From a virus (lineage: Duplodnaviria; Caudoviricetes), in the IMG/VR virus record IMGVR_UViG_3300045391_005020: a stretch of DNA of 64,000 nucleotides; one strand, given 5' to 3'. Below are positions 3,010 through 36,387 of the stretch, piece by piece (within the stretch, counting starts at the first letter, position 1; each line of letters begins with the position of its first letter). The notes beneath the pieces are model-generated. The model saw only the letters and a program-made list of their open reading frames with translations, had not been told where the DNA came from and did not search any database. Both the position numbers and the translations under genes were made by a program.

Positions 3010-3224
3010 GATCGAGACAATATGATTGACTAGATGACAGTACAGTAAATTTTACCGCTGTTCCCAGGACTCCCGTTCGAGGCGCCGGCGTTCGGCTTCG
3101 GCGTGCCGGTACAGGGTCTCGAATTCGTTGGAACGATCCGCGAGCCACTTGTTAGTGGAGCGCAGCAGCAGGATCCAGGTGACCAAGGAGCCGATAACGA
3201 GCAGGAGCGCAAACAAGATCCAAA

Positions 3225-7781: not shown

Positions 7782-8081
7782 GTGATCGATGAAGAATTTG
7801 TAATCGTCGACGGCTCTGTCGAGTCGCCCCTGTTGACCGCTGAGGAGGCTGCGGCCTATCTGCGCTGTCACCCCAAGACGCTTGGTAAGCGTGGGGTGCC
7901 ATATGTCGACCTGGGGCATCGATCACACTTCTACCGGAAAGAGGACCTCGATGCTTGGATCGCGCAGCGGCTCAAGAAGCCGCTCGCATCCGCGCCGGCG
8001 CGCGTGGATGTCCTGGCGCTCGAGCCCGTGCGCGAGTACCTGCCGAAGCGCCGGAAGCGCGCTACGAGTCGAGCTTCCTGA
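7782..8081 (+). CDS. excisionase-like HTH (MerR/HTH_17) protein
   Basis: LLTAEEAAAYLRCHPKTL...YRKEDLDAWI; convergent with the integrase; has its own promoter motif at 7751. Confidence 0.85.
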   Translation: MIDEEFVIVDGSVESPLLTAEEAAAYLRCHPKTLGKRGVPYVDLGHRSHFYRKEDLDAWIAQRLKKPLASAPARVDVLALEPVREYLPKRRKRATSRAS

Positions 8082-9993: not shown

Positions 9994-10069
9994 TGGACTA
10001 CGCGATCGGTGCTGCCCCGACTTGGTCCTGCTTGGAAGGCAGGCGATCTGCTAGATGACCCACGCGTAG
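9994..10069 (-). tRNA. tRNA-Gly(TCC)
   Basis: CCTGC-CTTCCAA-GCAGG; U73; CCA; T-loop GGCAGCA. Confidence 0.85.
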
Positions 10070-12667: not shown

Positions 12668-13096
12668 CTAAAGAAGCGGAAGCTGTCCCGTCACGGGATC
12701 GATCTCGTGGTCCCAGTGTGGACCGATCGCCAGACACGTCTTGGTCGGAACCCCGTTGAACTCGGTGAGGCCGCGGTCTTCGATCAGATGACACCGTAGC
12801 CCACGAGCCTTCGCGGCCAGCTCGATGTCGAGCAAGGCCTGCTCGGACTCAACGTAGCAGCAGATCTTCCGGAAGTTGCCGAAGTACCAGGCTTGCTCGG
12901 CCGGATCCAGGAAGATCCCGTCGAGCTCGATTTTGACGTCGTTGTCCTTCAGGCCTGGACGGCTCTCGCGCGGCCCGAACACTTTGAGCATCAGGGCTGC
13001 GATGCTGGCATGAGATCCCTGAGCGATCATCTTACCCTTGCGCATATTGAGGTCCTTGCGGACCACGATCACTTGCTTAACCGAGTTGACTGACAT
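12668..13096 (-). CDS. pth2: peptidyl-tRNA hydrolase type 2
   Basis: KQVIVVRKDLNMRKGKMIAQGSHA, IEDRGLTEF, TCLAIGP, IDPVTGQLPLL. Confidence 0.95.
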   Translation of the reverse strand: MSVNSVKQVIVVRKDLNMRKGKMIAQGSHASIAALMLKVFGPRESRPGLKDNDVKIELDGIFLDPAEQAWYFGNFRKICCYVESEQALLDIELAAKARGLRCHLIEDRGLTEFNGVPTKTCLAIGPHWDHEIDPVTGQLPLL

Positions 13097-13135: not shown

Positions 13136-13212
13136 TGGTCCGCCGCGTAGGACGTGCGCCTACATCCCCCGGTTAAGAGCCGGGTGCATCTGTCTGTTTA
13201 TGCTTGCAGCGA
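13136..13212 (-). tRNA. tRNA-Lys(CTT)
   Basis: CCCGG-CTCTTAA-CCGGG; CCA. Confidence 0.9.
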
Positions 13213-14460: not shown

Positions 14461-14517
14461 ATGGGGGACTATGGCACAATATAACGCCACAGTCAAGGCC
14501 ATTGTCACGAATCGGAC

Positions 14518-15411
14518 CTACTCCTGGCCCTCGCGCTTGTATTCATTCATCTTACTGATCTTCAGGTTGACCTCTTCGACTGCCTGCTTCTTCTGCTTGG
14601 TCTTGGCACCTTTACGGGCGCTGGCAGAGCGTTCGTCGATCATGCGGTCTCTGGTGTTGCCGAGCAGGTCCTCGGTGGCGCTGAACAGACGCTTAACCGA
14701 TTTGTCTTCGCGCCACTGCTCTATCGCCCAGGTGCAGTTCCAGTAGTTGTCGCTGGAGCCCGAACCGATGCGATCACCCAGCACCGCGTTGCGGAGGACC
14801 AAGATCGGACTGCCTTCAGGCAGATCCGTGCCGGCCAGGTATGAGTCGATGAACTCCTCGGCCTTCCGAGGATAGAAGTGATGGAAAACCACCATTGCCG
14901 CCGCGATGGTCGCGCGGGTTAAACGAGCACGTTTCGTGTTGAATTTCCCGGTCACGAACTCGAACGACGCAGACATCTTGAGGAAAGTGTCCTCGAGTTC
15001 GTCGATCGTCGGGCGGTGGTGGACGCCGGTGCACTTCAGATACTGGCTAACGATCTGATTGCAGAGACGGTTATGGGCCGGGTCATTCAGAAGTTTGAGG
15101 CACTCGAAGCTGGTACGATTGCGACCGCGGTCCGTATGCTTAGCGATTTCAGGACTACCGCCGCGCATGACGTACATCCACTGCCCTTTGCCAGTAATGA
15201 CGATCGCGGCGAGTCGGTGTTGGCCGTCGAGTACTTCACCGTCTTTACCGATGCAGATACCCTGATGGGTCGTCATGAACTCATCGTTCATAATAAGCCG
15301 GACGAAGTAATCGGTATTGGCCGGCGTCATCGGGCGCGCGTTGTTGTGGTTGTGGTTTTTTAGCAAGTCCTCGGCTATTTCCTTGGACACGTATTCTCGG
15401 TTGTACGACAT
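14518..15411 (-). CDS. ParB N-terminal-like domain protein
   Basis: NARPM...THQGICIGKDGEVLDGQHRLAAI. Confidence 0.65.
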   Translation of the reverse strand: MSYNREYVSKEIAEDLLKNHNHNNARPMTPANTDYFVRLIMNDEFMTTHQGICIGKDGEVLDGQHRLAAIVITGKGQWMYVMRGGSPEIAKHTDRGRNRTSFECLKLLNDPAHNRLCNQIVSQYLKCTGVHHRPTIDELEDTFLKMSASFEFVTGKFNTKRARLTRATIAAAMVVFHHFYPRKAEEFIDSYLAGTDLPEGSPILVLRNAVLGDRIGSGSSDNYWNCTWAIEQWREDKSVKRLFSATEDLLGNTRDRMIDERSASARKGAKTKQKKQAVEEVNLKISKMNEYKREGQE

Positions 15412-15525
15412 AGGATCTTTCCCGCCCGCTGTGGGCCATTTCGTAGACAGTGTAAATTCGCGTTACCGAGGCCAAATATACGAGCTGTTGCACACAGTCA
15501 AGATCATTGTATTGATCGTACTAAA

Positions 15526-15603
15526 TGGTCGGGATGGCGGGATTTGAACCCACGATCTCCTGGTCCCAAGCCAGGCGGAGTAACCAGACTCTCCTACACC
15601 CCT
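15526..15603 (-). tRNA. tRNA-Pro(TGG)
   Basis: CCTGG-CTTGGGA-CCAGG; CCA. Confidence 0.9.
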
Positions 15604-15610
15604 ATGAAAA

Positions 15611-15687
15611 TGGTCAGAGTGGTTGGATTTGAACCAACGATCTCCTGGATCCGAACCAGGCAGAATACCAAGCTTTCCCACACTCTG
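15611..15687 (-). tRNA. tRNA-Pro(CGG)
   Basis: CCTGG-TTCGGAT-CCAGG; CCA. Confidence 0.92.
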
Positions 15688-15692
15688 AAAAA

Positions 15693-15767
15693 TGGCGCCC
15701 CCACGCGGTGCTGCCCCGCGCTCTCCTGATAGACAATCAGGCGTCTTAGCTGATGGACGATGAGAGC
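15693..15767 (-). tRNA. tRNA-Asp(GTC)
   Basis: CCTGA-TTGTCTA-TCAGG; G73; CCA. Confidence 0.88.
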
Positions 15768-15771
15768 AAAA

Positions 15772-15865
15772 GCCCGCGCTTTATTCGACCGCCTTCGCGG
15801 CCACCCGTTCAACCGACGGGCAGGTCAGCCTTACGGCTGCGCGGAACCTGATTGCCTTGCGGCAC
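15772..15865 (-). ncRNA. candidate small structured RNA with GNRA hairpins
   Basis: TGCC-GCAA-GGCA; CAGGT/ACCTG enclosing CAGCC-GTAA-GGCTG; CCCGT/ACGGG. Confidence 0.45.
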
Positions 15866-15868
15866 GAA

Positions 15869-15943
15869 TGGTGGATCCGAGGTGACTCGCACACCTATCC
15901 CTCTGCTTGCAAAGCAGCCGCTCTTCTTTGGAGCTACGAACCC
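15869..15943 (-). tRNA. tRNA-Ala(TGC)
   Basis: Anticodon loop TTTGCAA; G3:U70; CCA. Confidence 0.9.
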
Positions 15944-15965
15944 GAAAAACATGCAGATAACGCGC

Positions 15966-16062
15966 TGGTTCCCGCGGCCTATTGATTTGCTATTCCGCCC
16001 GGACGGGAGCGGTTGCTGGCTCGAGCACAGCGGCGGCGTGTTACCAATTACACTAACCGGAG
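15966..16062 (-). ncRNA. degenerate tRNA-like RNA with an expanded anticodon arm
   Basis: D-arm GTGT-AATTGGTA-ACAC; CCGCC...GGCGG enclosing an insertion; ends ACCA; T-arm degraded. Confidence 0.35.
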
Positions 16063-16234
16063 CAACCCGGCCGGGCGTCGAACCCGATTTCCGCAAGAGG
16101 TGACCGCTCCATGCCTGGTACGGGTTGAGCGCGATCTCGAGCAGCGCTGCAGCGTGGCTCGATGTTTCGCTCGGTCATTCTCGTCCTAAGGGGACGGGTG
16201 GCCCGTAGAGGATTTGATCCTCAGCGATCATGAA

Positions 16235-16311
16235 TGGAGGGAGAAGGCGGAATCGAACCGTCTTGCGAGCGCGCCCGCATCGAGCCCAGGTATCCCTGTT
16301 CGAATTCTCCC
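16235..16311 (-). ncRNA. tRNA-like RNA with no anticodon loop
   Basis: GGGAGAA/TTCTCCC acceptor, GACGG-TTCGATT-CCGCC T-arm, U-CCA; the middle arms are non-canonical. Confidence 0.65.
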
Positions 16312-16316
16312 ATGAA

Positions 16317-16405
16317 TGGCGGGGTGAGATGGGTTCTATACCACCGACCTCTCATTGGCCGACATTGCTGTCGGCGAATAAGTGCTCTCGCTGAGCTACC
16401 ACCCC
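16317..16405 (-). ncRNA. tRNA-like RNA with the anticodon loop replaced by a GCAA-capped hairpin
   Basis: GCTC-AGCGA-GAGC D-arm; CTTAT-TC-GCCGACA-GCAA-TGTCGGC-CA-ATGAG; CCA. Confidence 0.65.
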
Positions 16406-16470
16406 AAAGAGGATCCGTCGGTCACGAACACTGATGAGGTGCTCGATTCGGTCATCAGCCGACCGACGGC

Positions 16471-16813
16471 GTTAAGTTGTTTGAAGCGAGCTCGAGTGAG
16501 GGGTTACAATTCCCTGACTTATCTCCGCAATCACGTATTCGACCATCCTGCCTCATCCGTGCCCGAACGGCCGTTCGGGACACCGGGTCAACAGCAGGAG
16601 GAGGACTCTCACCTCCACACGCTCGCCTTCTAGTCGTTATATTTGGCTACCAAGCGTGGCTCTCGAGTTGCGCACCGATGAACACCCAATGCGTCTCGAT
16701 CGTCGTCTTGCGCTTTCGCGTTCTTTCGTACCTCTTTATGTTCTCAAGAGTGCCTTGGTCCCCGAAGGACGGGTTGGCTCGGCCACACGCGGGCGCGCTT
16801 CAATCAACTTAAC
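16471..16813 (-). ncRNA. large structured ncRNA (~340 nt) closed by a long terminal helix
   Basis: GTTAAGTTGATTGAAGCGCGC pairs with GCTCGCTTCAAACAACTTAAC; many internal hairpins; preceded by boxA and a promoter motif; no credible ORF. Confidence 0.65.
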
Positions 16814-16820
16814 AAACTGG

Positions 16821-16832
16821 ATTTCAAAGATC
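16821..16832 (-). promoter_or_regulatory. boxA-like antitermination site
   Basis: GATCTTTGAAAT just downstream of the promoter motif at 16864. Confidence 0.6.
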
Positions 16833-16884
16833 GAAGCACAGATAATCCGGTCCCGGCCATGATAGTCAAGGCCATTGTTATGAT

Positions 16885-16961
16885 TGGTTGCGAGTCTTGG
16901 AATTGCACCAAGCTACTTGGCTTATGAGACCAGGCAGGATCTATCTCCTGTCGAACTCGCA
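16885..16961 (-). tRNA. tRNA-Met(CAT) (could be Ile2 if lysidine-modified)
   Basis: Anticodon loop CTCATAA; CCA. Confidence 0.8.
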
Positions 16962-16966
16962 TTGAA

Positions 16967-17042
16967 TGGTACGCGACGATGGATTCGAACCACCGGTCTT
17001 CTCGATGTCACCGAGTTGCTCTGGCCGCTGAGCTAGTCGCGT
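16967..17042 (-). tRNA. tRNA-Val(GAC)
   Basis: Anticodon loop GTGACAT; TTCGAAT T-loop; CCA. Confidence 0.9.
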
Positions 17043-17047
17043 ATGAA

Positions 17048-17122
17048 TGGTGGTCAGCCAGGGACTCGAACCCTGATTCTCCGGGTGTAGGCCGGGCGTT
17101 CTTGCCGTTGAACTAGCCGACG
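17048..17122 (-). tRNA. tRNA-Val(TAC)
   Basis: Anticodon loop CCTACAC (C33); CCA. Confidence 0.85.
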
Positions 17123-17127
17123 ATGAA

Positions 17128-17201
17128 TGGCACCCACTGATGGAATTGAACCACCGCCTGAACGTTCGTAGCGTCCCGGTCTTCCGTTAGCCTAAGCGGG
17201 C
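17128..17201 (-). tRNA. tRNA-Arg(ACG)
   Basis: GGACG-CTACGAA-CGTTC; CCA. Confidence 0.88.
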
Positions 17202-17224
17202 GTGTCCCTACCTGCGCAGGGAAA

Positions 17225-17299
17225 TGGTACTCGGTCAGGGTTCTGCCCCCTGTTCTCGCGGATGAAAGCCGCGGATCTTAGCTAGTGGACGAACCGAGC
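17225..17299 (-). tRNA. tRNA-Glu(TTC)
   Basis: CGCGG-CTTTCAT-CCGCG; CCA. Confidence 0.88.
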
Positions 17300-17304
17300 A
17301 TGAA

Positions 17305-17380
17305 TGGGCCAAGAGACCGGATTCGCACCGGCATCACGGGAGACACAATCCCGCATCCTCACTGTTGGACGACTCTAGGC
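17305..17380 (-). tRNA. tRNA-His(GTG)
   Basis: CGGGA-TTGTGTC-TCCCG; G-1 and C73; CCA. Confidence 0.9.
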
Positions 17381-17385
17381 ATGAA

Positions 17386-17460
17386 TGGGTGACCCGCGAG
17401 GATTCGAACCTCGAGCAGCGAGATCCAAAGTCTCGCGTTCTACCATTGAACTACAGGTCA
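17386..17460 (-). tRNA. tRNA-Gln(TTG)
   Basis: CGAGA-CTTTGGA-TCTCG; U1-A72; CCA. Confidence 0.9.
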
Positions 17461-17614
17461 GTGAAAAAGGTCAGGCGCTCTTCCGGGTTAAGCTAGCAAG
17501 ACAAGGGCCTGGGCGCATGGCGTCGATCGCCGCTTCCGCGCTGTTCCGCGAGTGTCGTCGAGGCCTCGACGACTGCTCTTCTTGGACGGGATTCGAACCC
17601 GCATCTCCTGAGAG

Positions 17615-17689
17615 TGGTAGTCCTACTGTGTGCTGCCCACAGTTTGTCCGGCTGAGAACCGGGTGTACTAGCTGGTGTACGATAGGACC
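17615..17689 (-). tRNA. tRNA-Glu(CTC), nested in a second tRNA-like frame
   Basis: CCCGG-TTCTCAG-CCGGA; CTGTG-GGCAGCA-CACAG; CCA. Confidence 0.8.
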
Positions 17690-17784
17690 AAGAAAAAGGA
17701 GTCGGCCAGGTCAGCTGGCATTGATATCTGCGTAGGTCGGAATACCCGGCGCACCGGGGCGACATCGCATACGACTCCGAAGAT

Positions 17785-17860
17785 TGGCGGCGCCGACAGG
17801 ACTCGAACCTGTCGCCTTCCCGTTAGGACCGGGACGCTCTACCGGATGAGCTACGGCGCT
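17785..17860 (-). tRNA. tRNA-Arg(CCT)
   Basis: TCCCG-GTCCTAA-CGGGA; CCA. Confidence 0.9.
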
Positions 17861-17900
17861 CTGACCGCGCGCACGAAATGTGGCTCGCGCGCACGGAATG

Positions 17901-17974
17901 TGGCTGGACCGGAGGGATTCGAACCCTCACGCCCGCGTTTAGAAGGCGCGGCTCTGATCCGATCAGGCGGTCCC
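17901..17974 (-). tRNA. tRNA-Arg(TCT), atypical D-arm
   Basis: CGCGC-CTTCTAA-ACGCG; TTCGAAT T-loop; G73; CCA. Confidence 0.75.
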
Positions 17975-18028
17975 GAAACTTGACACATGAGCCAGAATTC
18001 GTCTGCTCTGACCCGAAAGGATTTACTC

Positions 18029-18268
18029 ATGCCCATGAGTCGAGCAGGACGGGCCGCGGTCGCGGCAGCAGCCAAGAAGCGTTGGAGGCTGATCAAGGCT
18101 GGAAAGATCCGGAAGCCGAAGGTCGGCCGCAAGGCCGGCGGACGCAACAGTGCAAAATTATCGATCAAGTCGTCCGGTCAGTCCGGGCTCAAAGAAACCG
18201 TGAAGGCGTTGAAACAGCTCGGGGCCGCGGCGGGATGCCGGGTCGAAGTGACGCTCGTCCCGAAGTAG
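18029..18268 (+). CDS. small basic nucleic-acid-binding protein
   Basis: MPMSRAGRAAVAAAAKKRW motif; Lys/Arg-rich. Confidence 0.55.
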   Translation: MPMSRAGRAAVAAAAKKRWRLIKAGKIRKPKVGRKAGGRNSAKLSIKSSGQSGLKETVKALKQLGAAAGCRVEVTLVPK

Positions 18269-18580
18269 TTACTTGGTCCAGTGAGGGGTGTTAAGCATCA
18301 TCGCATGCGCCTCGGTCTGGATATCGCTGAACTCGCGCTCACTCATTCCGGACTTGATGGCCTCGATCTGGAGTCTCGCCAACAGAGCGGCTGCGAGGCC
18401 TAGGCAGGTCTTGAGTGGACCGCGATGGAAGGTTCCGAATAGGGCCTCGTTGGTCCCGGTCGTCTCGTCTTGTTTGACCATCGAGATCACGCACGCGATT
18501 CCGCGGCTCTGGAGCTCCGAGATCAATTCGCGATCGGGTACGAGTTTCAGATTCATGACGGTTTTGTAGCCAGACCGCAA
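18269..18580 (-). CDS. hypothetical protein (similar N-terminus to 27465-27788)
   Basis: NL..VPD.ELI.EL.SR..ACVI pattern shared between the two. Confidence 0.55.
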   Translation of the reverse strand: MRSGYKTVMNLKLVPDRELISELQSRGIACVISMVKQDETTGTNEALFGTFHRGPLKTCLGLAAALLARLQIEAIKSGMSEREFSDIQTEAHAMMLNTPHWTK

Positions 18581-18597
18581 TGCGATCCAGCCAGAAA

Positions 18598-18671
18598 TGG
18601 CAGCCAGGCAGGGAATCGAACCCCGATATCGTGGTTAACAGCCACGTGTAATACCGTTATACGACCCGACT
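18598..18671 (-). tRNA. tRNA-Asn(GTT)
   Basis: CGTGG-CTGTTAA-CCACG; G73; CCA. Confidence 0.92.
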
Positions 18672-18711
18672 AAATGTCGGCCGTCCTCGACCTCTGCCGA
18701 GGACGGCCCAC

Positions 18712-18728
18712 AAGAATTGTTCCACAGT
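18712..18728. repeat. leader arm of the 17-bp inverted repeat
   Basis: aagaattgttccacagt, complementary to 7459-7475. Confidence 0.85.
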
Positions 18729-18734
18729 ATAGAG

Positions 18735-18748
18735 TTTTCAAAGACAGC
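18735..18748 (-). promoter_or_regulatory. boxA-like antitermination site at the head of the tRNA region
   Basis: GCTGTCTTTGAAAA versus the consensus TGCTCTTTAACA. Confidence 0.65.
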
Positions 18749-18750
18749 CT

Positions 18751-18832
18751 GAAACGCATGAACCCCAGGCTTTTGGCCTGGGGTTCGGGAGAGTCAGCGC
18801 AGAAGATGCTGTGTTACTCTCGGACCCCCAGG
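18751..18832 (-). terminator. attenuator: terminator hairpin with a competing antiterminator
   Basis: GAACCCCAGGC-CAAAA-GCCTGGGGTTC (11 bp). Its 5' arm plus the upstream ACTCTC pairs alternatively with CCTGGGGGTCCGAGAGT at the end of the leader ORF. Confidence 0.7.
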
Positions 18833-18948
18833 ATATCGCCATTACCGCGTTCAGTACCGACACAAATTCCCGTAGTCACGGCTTGCGGTTTGGCATGCCA
18901 TGTGGGCTTGGTCATCGCGGCTGGATTTCTGAGGGCTATAGAAAGCAT
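18814..18948 (-). CDS. 44-aa leader peptide of the tRNA region
   Basis: AGGA SD, ATG...TAA, encoding MLSIALRNPAAMTKPTWHAKPQAVTTGICVGTERGNGDILGVRE; TTGACT-N16-TATCTT promoter upstream. Confidence 0.7.
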   Translation of the reverse strand: MLSIALRNPAAMTKPTWHAKPQAVTTGICVGTERGNGDILGVRE

Positions 18949-18977
18949 GATGTCCTGGCGTCCCAAGATAACGCCCA

Positions 18978-19507
18978 TCACTTGGAAGTCAAGCTAACGG
19001 GCGAGTTCTTCCAGACGCCGCGGATACTGGTGGCGATCCAGACAACCTGCAGTGCCACAATCGCCCACGCGCTGGTCTCCCAGCCATAGATGGCCAAGAA
19101 AATGTCGCTGACGATGAACCACACGAAGCCCCACATGCGGGTGCGGGAGACCTGGCTGGCGACCAACAGGGCGCCGAGCAAACCGGCCGCGGCAGCCGGC
19201 CACTGGCACAAGAGCGCGATGTCGTGCCAGGTCACTTCTGGAGTCCTCGGCGGGCTTGTTCGATCAGGTACTGAACCATCCTCGGATCGAACGCGGCGAT
19301 AAATCTCCGGATCTCATTCGCTTCCGGTCTTGATGGGCTCACTTCACATACCGAACCGTCGTCCTCGCCATGATATTCATGGCGCTCCTCGAGGTACACG
19401 CGCTCTTGCTGATCCTGCGACTGCGCGAGACGCCAGTCGCGATCGTGCACTGCTGAACAGATGTTCTCCAGCCAATCGAGTTCTTGAGCCGACAACAAGT
19501 CTTCCAT
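18978..19507 (-). other. two small genes: membrane protein (18978-19235) and hypothetical (19232-19507)
   Basis: Three TM-like segments in the first; coupled ORFs. Confidence 0.55.
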
Positions 19508-35154: not shown

Positions 35155-36387
35155 TTATCCCTTCACGCACACGACCTGTTTGAGGGTGTGGACGACATCG
35201 ACCAGGTCAGCCTGGGCGGCCATCACGGCGTCGATGTCCTTGTAGGCCGCCGGCGTCTCGTCGATCACGTCGTCATCCTTCCGGCATTCCACACCGGCCG
35301 TAGCGGCAGCGTGGTCAGCTGCGGTGAAGCGACGCTTCGCTTCCGTTCTGCTCATGCGGCGACCGGCGCCGTGGCTGCAGCTGCAGAGCGATTCCTTGTT
35401 ACCCTTGCCGCGCACGATGTAGGAGCGCGCACCCATCGAGCCCGGGATGATTCCGAGATCTCCTTCTCTGGCTCGGACCGCACCCTTGCGGGTGACGAAC
35501 ACGTTCTTGCCGTAGTGGGCCTCGCGGGCGACGTAGTTGTGGTGACAGTTCACGGCTTCTTCGCGGATCTCGAAGAACGGCAGGATGCCCTCGAGGGCGT
35601 AGTGGACGTTCTCGAGCATCAGCTCGCGATTGAGCCGTGCATAGTCCTGGGCCCACATGACCGCGGCCCAGTAGTCGGCGAAGTGCTCCGTCTCCTCCGG
35701 AAAATAAGCGAGGTCCTGGTCCGGGAGATTGATGAAGAAGCGCCGCATGTCCTCTTTGGCCAGTTCGATGAAGTACTGACCGAATCGGTTCCCGACTCCG
35801 CGCGAGCCCGAGTGGAGCATGATCCACACGCGCTGCTCTTCATCGAGGCAGATCTCGATGAAGTGGTTGCCGGTCCCGAGCGTGCCCAGGTGGTTCAGCG
35901 AGTTCCCGCGATCGAGCTTCGGGTGGCGCTCGCACAGCGTCTTGTACCCGGAGGCAAGGTGGTTGTCCCACAAGTACTGGGCACGACCAGATGGATTCCC
36001 GAATGCGCCGCGATCGTTGGGACCGCCGTTGTCGGTGCGGCCGTGCGGGACCGCCTTCTCGATCGCTTCTCTGATGTACCGCAGGTTATCAGGGAGATCC
36101 TTGGCGGTCAGGGTAGTCCGGTTCGCAATCATGCCGCACCCGATGTCGACACCGACTGCGGCCGGGATAATGGCGCCGAGCGTCGGGATCACGGACCCGA
36201 CGGTCGCGCCCATGCCCATGTGGACGTCAGGCATGACGGCCACATGGTTGTGGATGAACGGCATCTTGGCGATGTTCAGCAACTGCTGGCGCGCCGCGTC
36301 CTCGAGCTCGACCCCTTTGGTCCAGCAATAGATCGGAGACCCGTCGGCTTTGATGACGTTGTAGTTCTGTTCGGCTGGCTTGTTCAT
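35155..36387 (-). CDS. rtcB: RNA 2',3'-cyclic phosphate/3'-phosphate--5'-OH ligase RtcB
   Basis: MPDVH, VGVDIGCG, GTLGTGNHFIE, HSGSRG, HHNY, IPGSMG, SHGAGR, DETPAAYK. Confidence 0.97.
   Translation of the reverse strand: MNKPAEQNYNVIKADGSPIYCWTKGVELEDAARQQLLNIAKMPFIHNHVAVMPDVHMGMGATVGSVIPTLGAIIPAAVGVDIGCGMIANRTTLTAKDLPDNLRYIREAIEKAVPHGRTDNGGPNDRGAFGNPSGRAQYLWDNHLASGYKTLCERHPKLDRGNSLNHLGTLGTGNHFIEICLDEEQRVWIMLHSGSRGVGNRFGQYFIELAKEDMRRFFINLPDQDLAYFPEETEHFADYWAAVMWAQDYARLNRELMLENVHYALEGILPFFEIREEAVNCHHNYVAREAHYGKNVFVTRKGAVRAREGDLGIIPGSMGARSYIVRGKGNKESLCSCSHGAGRRMSRTEAKRRFTAADHAAATAGVECRKDDDVIDETPAAYKDIDAVMAAQADLVDVVHTLKQVVCVKG

Follow-up and report, generated by a model that had tools for sequence, protein, structure and literature searches.

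The window, by which the whole analysed stretch of 64,000 nucleotides is meant, comes from a large uncultured phage and has a G+C content of 60%. Its minus strand carries a tRNA array spanning about 7.5-18.7 kb, in which ARAGORN finds 20 tRNAs and the Rfam tRNA model gives 19 matches; a PTH2 peptidyl-tRNA hydrolase gene, an integrase-like gene and a few small ORFs are interspersed among the tRNAs. The gene content of the phage includes RtcB and two Pth2-type genes. The stretch considered here is a 1-kb gap in the array, between tRNA-Val (16967-17042) and tRNA-Ala (15869-15943), in which no program calls a tRNA. The gap contains four elements, designated A, B, C and D, all of which lie on the minus strand (Table 1). 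The G+C content at third codon positions (GC3), an excess of which marks the real genes of this phage, is 0.52-0.69 in the ORFs overlapping the gap as against 0.73-0.83 in real genes, and the reading of the stretch as a coding region was rejected.

The internal promoter-like site upstream of the non-coding block resembles the main promoter-like site of the operon (18965-18992); no minus-strand terminator-like site was found across 15400-19100. The CCA-UUCAUG spacer signature that follows A and B is also present, according to the pattern search, 3' of bona fide tRNAs at 17042-17388. Immediately upstream of A, within 16410-16880 (-), there is a well-paired RNA of about 340 nt together with a long hairpin (16415-16469); both sit behind the internal promoter-like site and have no Rfam match at E ≤ 10.

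Table 1. Features of the gap in the tRNA array and its surroundings, and anticodon-less sequences from other phages. Positions refer to the window, except in rows that name another locus (L).
Feature	Position	Strand	Description and basis
PTH2 peptidyl-tRNA hydrolase	12668-13096		Interspersed within the tRNA array
RtcB	35155-36387		In the 64-kb window
Internal promoter-like site	16842-16869	(-)	TTGACT, 16 nt, GATTAT; consensus scan; upstream of the non-coding block
Two CCA-UUCAUG junctions	16311-16319 and 16229-16237	(-)	One 3' of A, one 3' of B; pattern search
Element A	16317-16405	(-)	89-nt cloverleaf; sequence, fold, acceptor/T-arm/NCCA descriptor
A, acceptor stem	16399-16405 with 16321-16327	(-)	7/7 bp, one G-U
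A, D-arm	16384-16396	(-)	4-bp stem, 5-nt loop without GG
A, rod in place of anticodon stem-loop	16351-16382	(-)	14 bp, one C-C mismatch, GCAA cap
A, apical heptamer ACAGCAA	16365-16371	(-)	Only copy in the window
A, T-arm	16328-16345	(-)	5-bp stem (5/5), odd 8-nt loop UAUAGAAC
A, CCA	16317-16319	(-)	Encoded; discriminator G
Element B	16235-16311	(-)	77-nt four-way junction; sequence
B, acceptor stem	16305-16311 with 16239-16245	(-)	Perfect, 7/7 bp
B, first arm	16280-16303	(-)	24 nt; CAGG-GAUA-CCUG on a CGA/UCG base
B, second arm	16264-16279	(-)	16 nt; 6-bp stem, CGCG loop
B, T-arm	16246-16262	(-)	UUCGAUU loop; one A-C mismatch, stem 4/5
B, CCA	16235-16237	(-)	Discriminator U
Element C	16121-16234	(-)	Structured linker or separate small RNA; fold
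Element D	~16003-16113	(-)	Circularly permuted tRNA-like module on a stem; YrlA local match, fold, permuted-module descriptor
D, outer stem	16103-16110 with 16006-16013	(-)	8 bp
D, inner stem closing the module	16091-16094 with 16033-16036	(-)	4 bp
D, T-arm	16071-16087	(-)	Canonical; UUCGACG loop
D, closed acceptor-like hairpin	16057-16070	(-)	5 bp, UUGC loop
D, D-arm	16038-16053	(-)	Canonical; AAUUGGUA loop
D, side hairpin	16015-16031	(-)	
Sequence in L075	7361-7426		Anticodon-less; 4-bp arm capped by GGAA
Sequence in L058	470-545		Anticodon-less; capped hairpins
Sequence in L082	2335-2396		Without anticodon arm
Form in L056/L060			141 nt; two hairpins in the loop

Element A is a cloverleaf whose predicted fold (-40.1 kcal/mol, z = -4.35) is matched by 0 of 200 shuffles; 29 of its 30 stem positions are paired, and the rod has 13 of 14 pairs under a GNRA cap. 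The preliminary description of this element was right about the acceptor stem, the D-arm, the CCA and the replacement of the anticodon loop by a GCAA-capped hairpin. The 2x2 internal loop that it placed below the hairpin disappears in the lowest-energy fold, which adds one U-A pair and leaves a single C-C mismatch in the rod. The rod is unique in the window, and its interpretation as a repeated palindromic element was discarded. ARAGORN does not call A, nor does the Rfam tRNA model match it even at E ≤ 10. The element is credible through its position, spacer, CCA and intact stems; the rod alone is insufficient.

In element B, two capped hairpins occupy the places of the D-arm and the anticodon arm. 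All the parts reported earlier for this RNA (7-bp acceptor stem, TTCGATT T-arm, CCA, long first arm and tight hairpin) are present. The 16-nt second arm is too short for a 5+7+5 anticodon arm. The constrained cloverleaf-like fold has an energy of -31.7 kcal/mol, and the unconstrained fold is no better than those of shuffles (z = -1.25). There is no ARAGORN call for B, and at E ≤ 10 its sole match, a weak one, is to tRNA-Sec (18.7 bits, E = 1.9).

Element C consists of a three-hairpin domain, which includes the hairpin 16208-16222, and a long interrupted hairpin at about 16127-16172. Its fold (-41.2 kcal/mol, z = -3.37) is matched by 0 of 200 shuffles, and it has no Rfam match. The 16208-16222 hairpin had been taken for an isolated T-arm-like structure; with a stem of 5-6 bp and a loop of 3-5 nt, it is not T-arm-like.

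Element D is arranged differently: the T-arm comes first, followed by the closed acceptor-like hairpin and the D-arm, so that a loop caps the acceptor end and the termini of the chain lie at the anticodon stem. The tRNA invariants U8, A14, G18, G19, A21, G53, U54, U55, C56, R57, A58 and C61 are present in this permuted order. The D-arm previously assigned to an RNA at 15966-16062 exists and is part of this module, and the expanded anticodon arm described after it does not; the supposedly isolated T-arm near 16068-16087 belongs with that D-arm in the same module. The nested stems of D are visible in the predicted fold, which is no better than the folds of shuffles (z = +0.32). A permuted true tRNA gene was considered for D and rejected, the acceptor having only 5 bp and both CCA and an anticodon loop being absent.

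The earlier account had presented these RNAs as tRNA-shaped with missing or rebuilt anticodon arms, and none of A, B and D is called as a tRNA: ARAGORN and the Rfam tRNA model (gathering score 29 bits) make no calls inside 15966-16405. A canonical 7-nt anticodon loop (U33, purine at 37) on a 5-bp stem is absent from all three. When canonical acceptor and T stems are considered, A passes with 7/7 and 5/5 pairs and B with 7/7 and 4/5, and D fails, its 5-bp stem being closed by a loop. A tmRNA was likewise rejected, as ARAGORN reports none and both A and B have G3:C70, not G3:U70.

The features of the region containing A, B and D are not due to chance. In the window, a descriptor combining a 7-bp acceptor, a 5-bp T stem and NCCA picks out 22 minus-strand sites and a single plus-strand one; a stricter version that also demands a canonical T-loop has 287 matches in 2.3 Mb of phage loci and 0-2 in shuffles. 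The permuted-module descriptor gives 11 real matches, D among them, against one in shuffles. The purely structural descriptor, which asks for a cloverleaf carrying a long rod, shows no enrichment (18 matches, 11 in shuffles).

Close homologues of the region were sought by several routes. With blastn, positions 15400-17500 matched only ordinary tRNAs among GenBank phages. Exact-word scans of IMG/VR gave nine chance matches for the rod of A, none for the D-arm of A and 25 for the D-arm of D; the last were nearly all ordinary tRNAs, mostly tRNA-Trp, and no permuted module was found among them. The 19-mer of the D-arm of D is identical to D-arms of ordinary phage tRNA-Trp. Loci anchored on PTH2 (IMG/VR, metagenomes and GTDB genomes) show identities of at most 57%, except for L090 at 76%, whose contig stops short of the A-D region, at a point corresponding to window position 14510. 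A blastn-short search with A-D against 80 loci gave no match, a single-sequence covariance model of D recovered D alone, and the neighbouring 297-aa protein has no relative in IMG/VR.

Similar architectures nevertheless occur elsewhere. In 160 PTH2-bearing loci of other large phages, 28 distinct CCA-ending tRNA-shaped sequences are missed by ARAGORN, several of them without an anticodon loop (Table 1). Permuted tRNA-like modules also recur in other large phages; a search for a neighbour protein shared by their loci found none. The best look-alike of A is L060 11111-11207, a tRNA-Gly(UCC) interrupted after nucleotide 36 by a 27-nt hairpin, and at the same place a tRNA-Ile(GAU) in L077 (7578-7682) carries a 33-nt insert. 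Both inserts contain the word UAUCUUCU and pair with the anticodon; they look like candidate true short introns or mobile hairpins. A differs from these two genes in that removal of its insert gives no canonical loop.

Recurrent CCA-ending mini-tRNAs of 66-67 nt with a 3-bp D arm, mostly with the loop CUUCUAA (Arg-UCU), are likewise missed by ARAGORN. They were observed at L099 4770-4835, L115 4137-4202, L017 14221-14286 and L033 12738-12803, and in pairs in L039 (16944-17010 and 17098-17164) and L145 (15100-15165 and 16066-16131). A group I intron (Rfam, 63 bits) lies at L075 6538-6738, inside a dense phage tRNA array.

On balance, the stretch probably encodes several tRNA mimics in a row that cannot decode and whose synthesis and maturation are shared with the phage tRNAs. 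A and B retain what tRNA-maturing enzymes read, namely a 7-bp acceptor stacked on a 5-bp T stem, a discriminator, CCA and the UUCAU spacer. Because this spacer is shared with real tRNAs, A and B should mature as tRNAs do. All the elements would be transcribed from the operon promoter or from the internal promoter-like site (16869-16842), and RNase P together with 3' trimming would free A (89 nt) and B (77 nt) as stable RNAs. There is a precedent in a tRNA-like Y RNA, which RNase P can cleave and which can gain CCA (PMC4201824). Since no codon pairing is possible, the mimics would presumably act through the tRNA body. Proteins that recognise tRNA by its shape may be occupied or recruited by them; a defence nuclease of the host that cleaves tRNAs would be one example, and an enzyme of tRNA repair or quality control another. 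The phage itself is equipped for repairing and rescuing tRNAs, through RtcB and two Pth2-type genes. The sealed arm would render the mimics uncleavable at the usual target site. Binding of such proteins, a decoy role included, is the most natural putative function for a tRNA body that lacks an anticodon loop. Against the mimic reading, no partner protein was found among the ORFs examined, and the folds of B and D are at the level of shuffles.

The alternative that A and B are relics is unlikely. According to it, tRNA genes were disabled by the insertion of a hairpin (A) or by rearrangement (B) and were kept, otherwise functionless, just as RNase P marks between adjacent RNAs. The contigs L275 and L276, relatives of L060, have the same Gly gene as L060 in uninterrupted form, as a normal tRNA-Gly(UCC); since the insertion is missing from them, a rod can have been acquired recently instead of being a design under selection. 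The aberrant 8-nt T-loop and the D-loop without GG in A, the mismatch in the T stem of B and the failure of the rod descriptor to exceed shuffles also agree with loss of function. Decay, however, is expected to strike stems at random. The preliminary description had argued from retained pairing against random decay, and this argument holds for A, with its 29 of 30 paired positions and stable GNRA cap, and for the acceptor and T halves of B. The acceptor stems of both are complete, CCA and spacers are intact, and the rod retains 13 of its 14 pairs; moreover, three different anticodon-less designs lie adjacent to one another behind a promoter-like site of their own.

A more specific proposal concerns the heptamer ACAGCAA, which in A directly follows the 5' strand of the rod, GCCG, at the rod tip. 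Units consisting of a closing stem and ACAGCAA, which belong to an uncatalogued family of small RNAs from phage tRNA arrays, are present in six copies in L078 (8.4-15 kb) and in three copies in L022 (2993, 3119 and 6144). These units are 55-120 nt long and have a 7-9-bp closing stem, ACAGCAA directly after its 5' strand and a variable interior; the L022 unit at 3119 measures about 120 nt up to the closing strand GCAUUC. Two of the three L022 units enclose a permuted tRNA-like module. Near tRNAs and on their strand, ACAGCAA is about twice as dense as elsewhere; 37 copies share the strand of the tRNAs and 11 lie on the other one. Membership in the family was defined by a 7-9-bp closing stem, ACAGCAA 0-3 nt after the 5' strand and then a variable interior; the closing-stem part of this definition is permissive, and about 37% of distant ACAGCAA copies satisfy it by chance. 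A is similar to these RNAs in having the heptamer after the 5' rod strand, and some of them enclose modules like D; in A, however, ACAGCAA can take part in the pairing of the rod and the interior measures just 3 nt, and D has no ACAGCAA at the expected place. We take the units to resemble the Class I RNAs of Dictyostelium. It is a speculative and rather improbable extension that each of A, B and D joins a tRNA-shaped body to a protein-binding 'handle' in its own way, the handle of A being ACAGCAA, and that the set comprises Ro60-independent, Y-RNA-like adaptors. As part of the same tentative proposal, such adaptors would bring a protein to tRNA-recognising enzymes or would occupy tRNA-cleaving defence nucleases during infection.

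It is doubtful that D, alone or in combination with C and adjacent hairpins, represents a genuine Y RNA operating with a Ro60/Rsr protein encoded elsewhere in the 215-kb genome. The earlier suggestion of Y-RNA-like tRNA mimicry fits the architecture of D, and membership of the YrlA family fails on the Rfam score, the Ro-binding motif and the absence of a Ro60 neighbour. Like YrlA and the Y RNAs of bacteria and mycobacteriophages (RF02553, PMC4201824), D has an inside-out tRNA domain, with a T-arm, a loop-closed acceptor-like stem, a D-arm and an anticodon-like stem leading to a terminal helix, and the tRNA invariants accompany the YrlA arm order. Its local match to RF02553, over model positions 31-81 (the T/AS/D part), scores 18.6 bits (E = 1.3), far below the gathering cut-off of 69 bits. 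The motif GNCGAAN0-1G near the 5' end of Y RNA is the proposed contact with Ro60 (Chen et al. 2014, PMC4201824); it has no occurrence on the minus strand in 15400-17000, as against 72 on the same strand window-wide. Bacterial rsr-yrlBA-rtcBA loci are a precedent for a Y RNA near RtcB, which is encoded within the window, and Y RNAs are accompanied by extra hairpin RNAs and are found in phages (PMC4201824). A Y RNA was expected to have a TROVE/Ro60 gene within about 4 kb on the same strand; no TROVE match was found in the ORFs within 4 kb (297, 374, 90 and 103 aa) or in the 64-kb window, where the only ORFs of at least 400 aa encode an AAA ATPase, an integrase and RtcB, leaving none of that length unexplained. 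The 374-aa protein encoded upstream of the operon was rejected as Ro60-like, being rich in Ser, Thr and Gly and unlike the helical Ro60 ring; it has no PDB, Pfam or PHROG match. A and B differ from YrlA in having an unpermuted arm order and a CCA end.

The least probable reading is that A is an intron-bearing pre-tRNA whose hairpin is cut out before the phage RtcB ligates the two halves into a functional tRNA, Gly-GCC or Ala-GGC; the preliminary description had suggested such cut and religated precursors, and the idea is very improbable in the light of the rod, which has a single 1x1 C-C mismatch and no bulge-helix-bulge, and of the excision products. Known intron types include the archaeal and eukaryal bulge-helix-bulge introns joined by RtcB and the bacterial group I introns in anticodon loops. 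A is like intron-bearing tRNAs in having extra paired sequence at the anticodon loop of a cloverleaf and in coming from a phage that encodes RtcB; the GCC that would serve as its anticodon is paired with GGC in the insert, an arrangement like that of anticodon-intron helices. The L060 and L077 genes likewise have their inserts between nucleotides 36 and 37, removal of which yields the perfect loops CUUCCAA and CUGAUAA, respectively, and the L077 gene scores 56 bits as a tRNA with the insert in place. A has no group I match, and, unlike in those two genes, excision restores no canonical loop: eight 15-nt excisions give the loops UCGGCCA, UCGCCCA or UCGCCGA, all with C33 and most with C37, and none of these eight products is accepted as a tRNA by ARAGORN with default settings (its intron mode was too noisy and was dropped). 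In E. coli, Ala identity depends on G3:U70 and Gly identity on U73 and C2:G71; by these rules, the acceptor of A has neither identity. No splicing endonuclease was found among the approximately 28 ORFs scanned, which cover the small ORFs in part, and no excision could rescue B or D.

Several known RNAs bear comparison with the mimics proposed here. The eukaryotic mascRNA from MALAT1 (Rfam RF01684) is a tRNA-like RNA matured by tRNA enzymes, and in the artificial 'tRNA scaffold' a payload replaces the anticodon stem-loop. In both, as is proposed here, it is the tRNA body that makes the RNA stable and a substrate for RNase P and CCA processing, and the anticodon place is altered or empty; there is no significant mascRNA match on A, B or D. 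Unexplained small RNAs, also named C and D, have been published for the tRNA region of phage T4. They too are stable RNAs other than tRNAs that lie among phage tRNA genes and presumably share their maturation; the comparison is by description only, and the review that treats the T4 RNAs does not describe them as anticodon-less cloverleaves. A limited literature search gave no published description of CCA-ending, anticodon-less cloverleaves in phage tRNA operons. According to three papers (PMC10264068, PMC11464382, PMC11555353), phage tRNA genes are in part a counter to host anticodon-loop nucleases. If the mimic reading is true, a tRNA body with a sealed loop would bind such nucleases and yet remain uncut there, acting as a sponge and not as a spare part. 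Mimicry of tRNA by Y RNAs is already known (PMC4201824); conserved and expressed elements of the present kind would extend it to Ro60-independent RNAs of 77-110 nt that can be tested at the bench. If A and B are merely tRNAs disabled by insertions, the finding is an ordinary one.

The array contains further unusual RNAs. An 80-nt long hairpin immediately downstream of the integrase-like gene, 7956-8035 (-), has a 7-bp acceptor-like closing stem followed by U-CCA and is without a T or D arm. Two further uncalled, CCA-bearing tRNA-like genes are found at 16885-16961 (-) and 13136-13212 (-). One of them is Met/Ile2-like (loop CUCAUAA) and has a long D stem with a GAUAGA loop, both closely resembling the first arm of B; the other is Lys-CUU-like, with the T-loop CGCACGU. 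Four tRNAs, all on the minus strand (17615-17689, 17225-17299, 15693-15767 and 9994-10069), have the T-loop GGCAG(C/A)A instead of UUCRANY; they are Glu-CUC, Glu-UUC, Asp-GUC and Gly-UCC, have a D-loop of the AYCAGCUA type without GG and are missed by ARAGORN and by Rfam at the gathering score. The joint change of both elbow loops in these tRNAs suggests an alternative contact between the D-loop and the T-loop.
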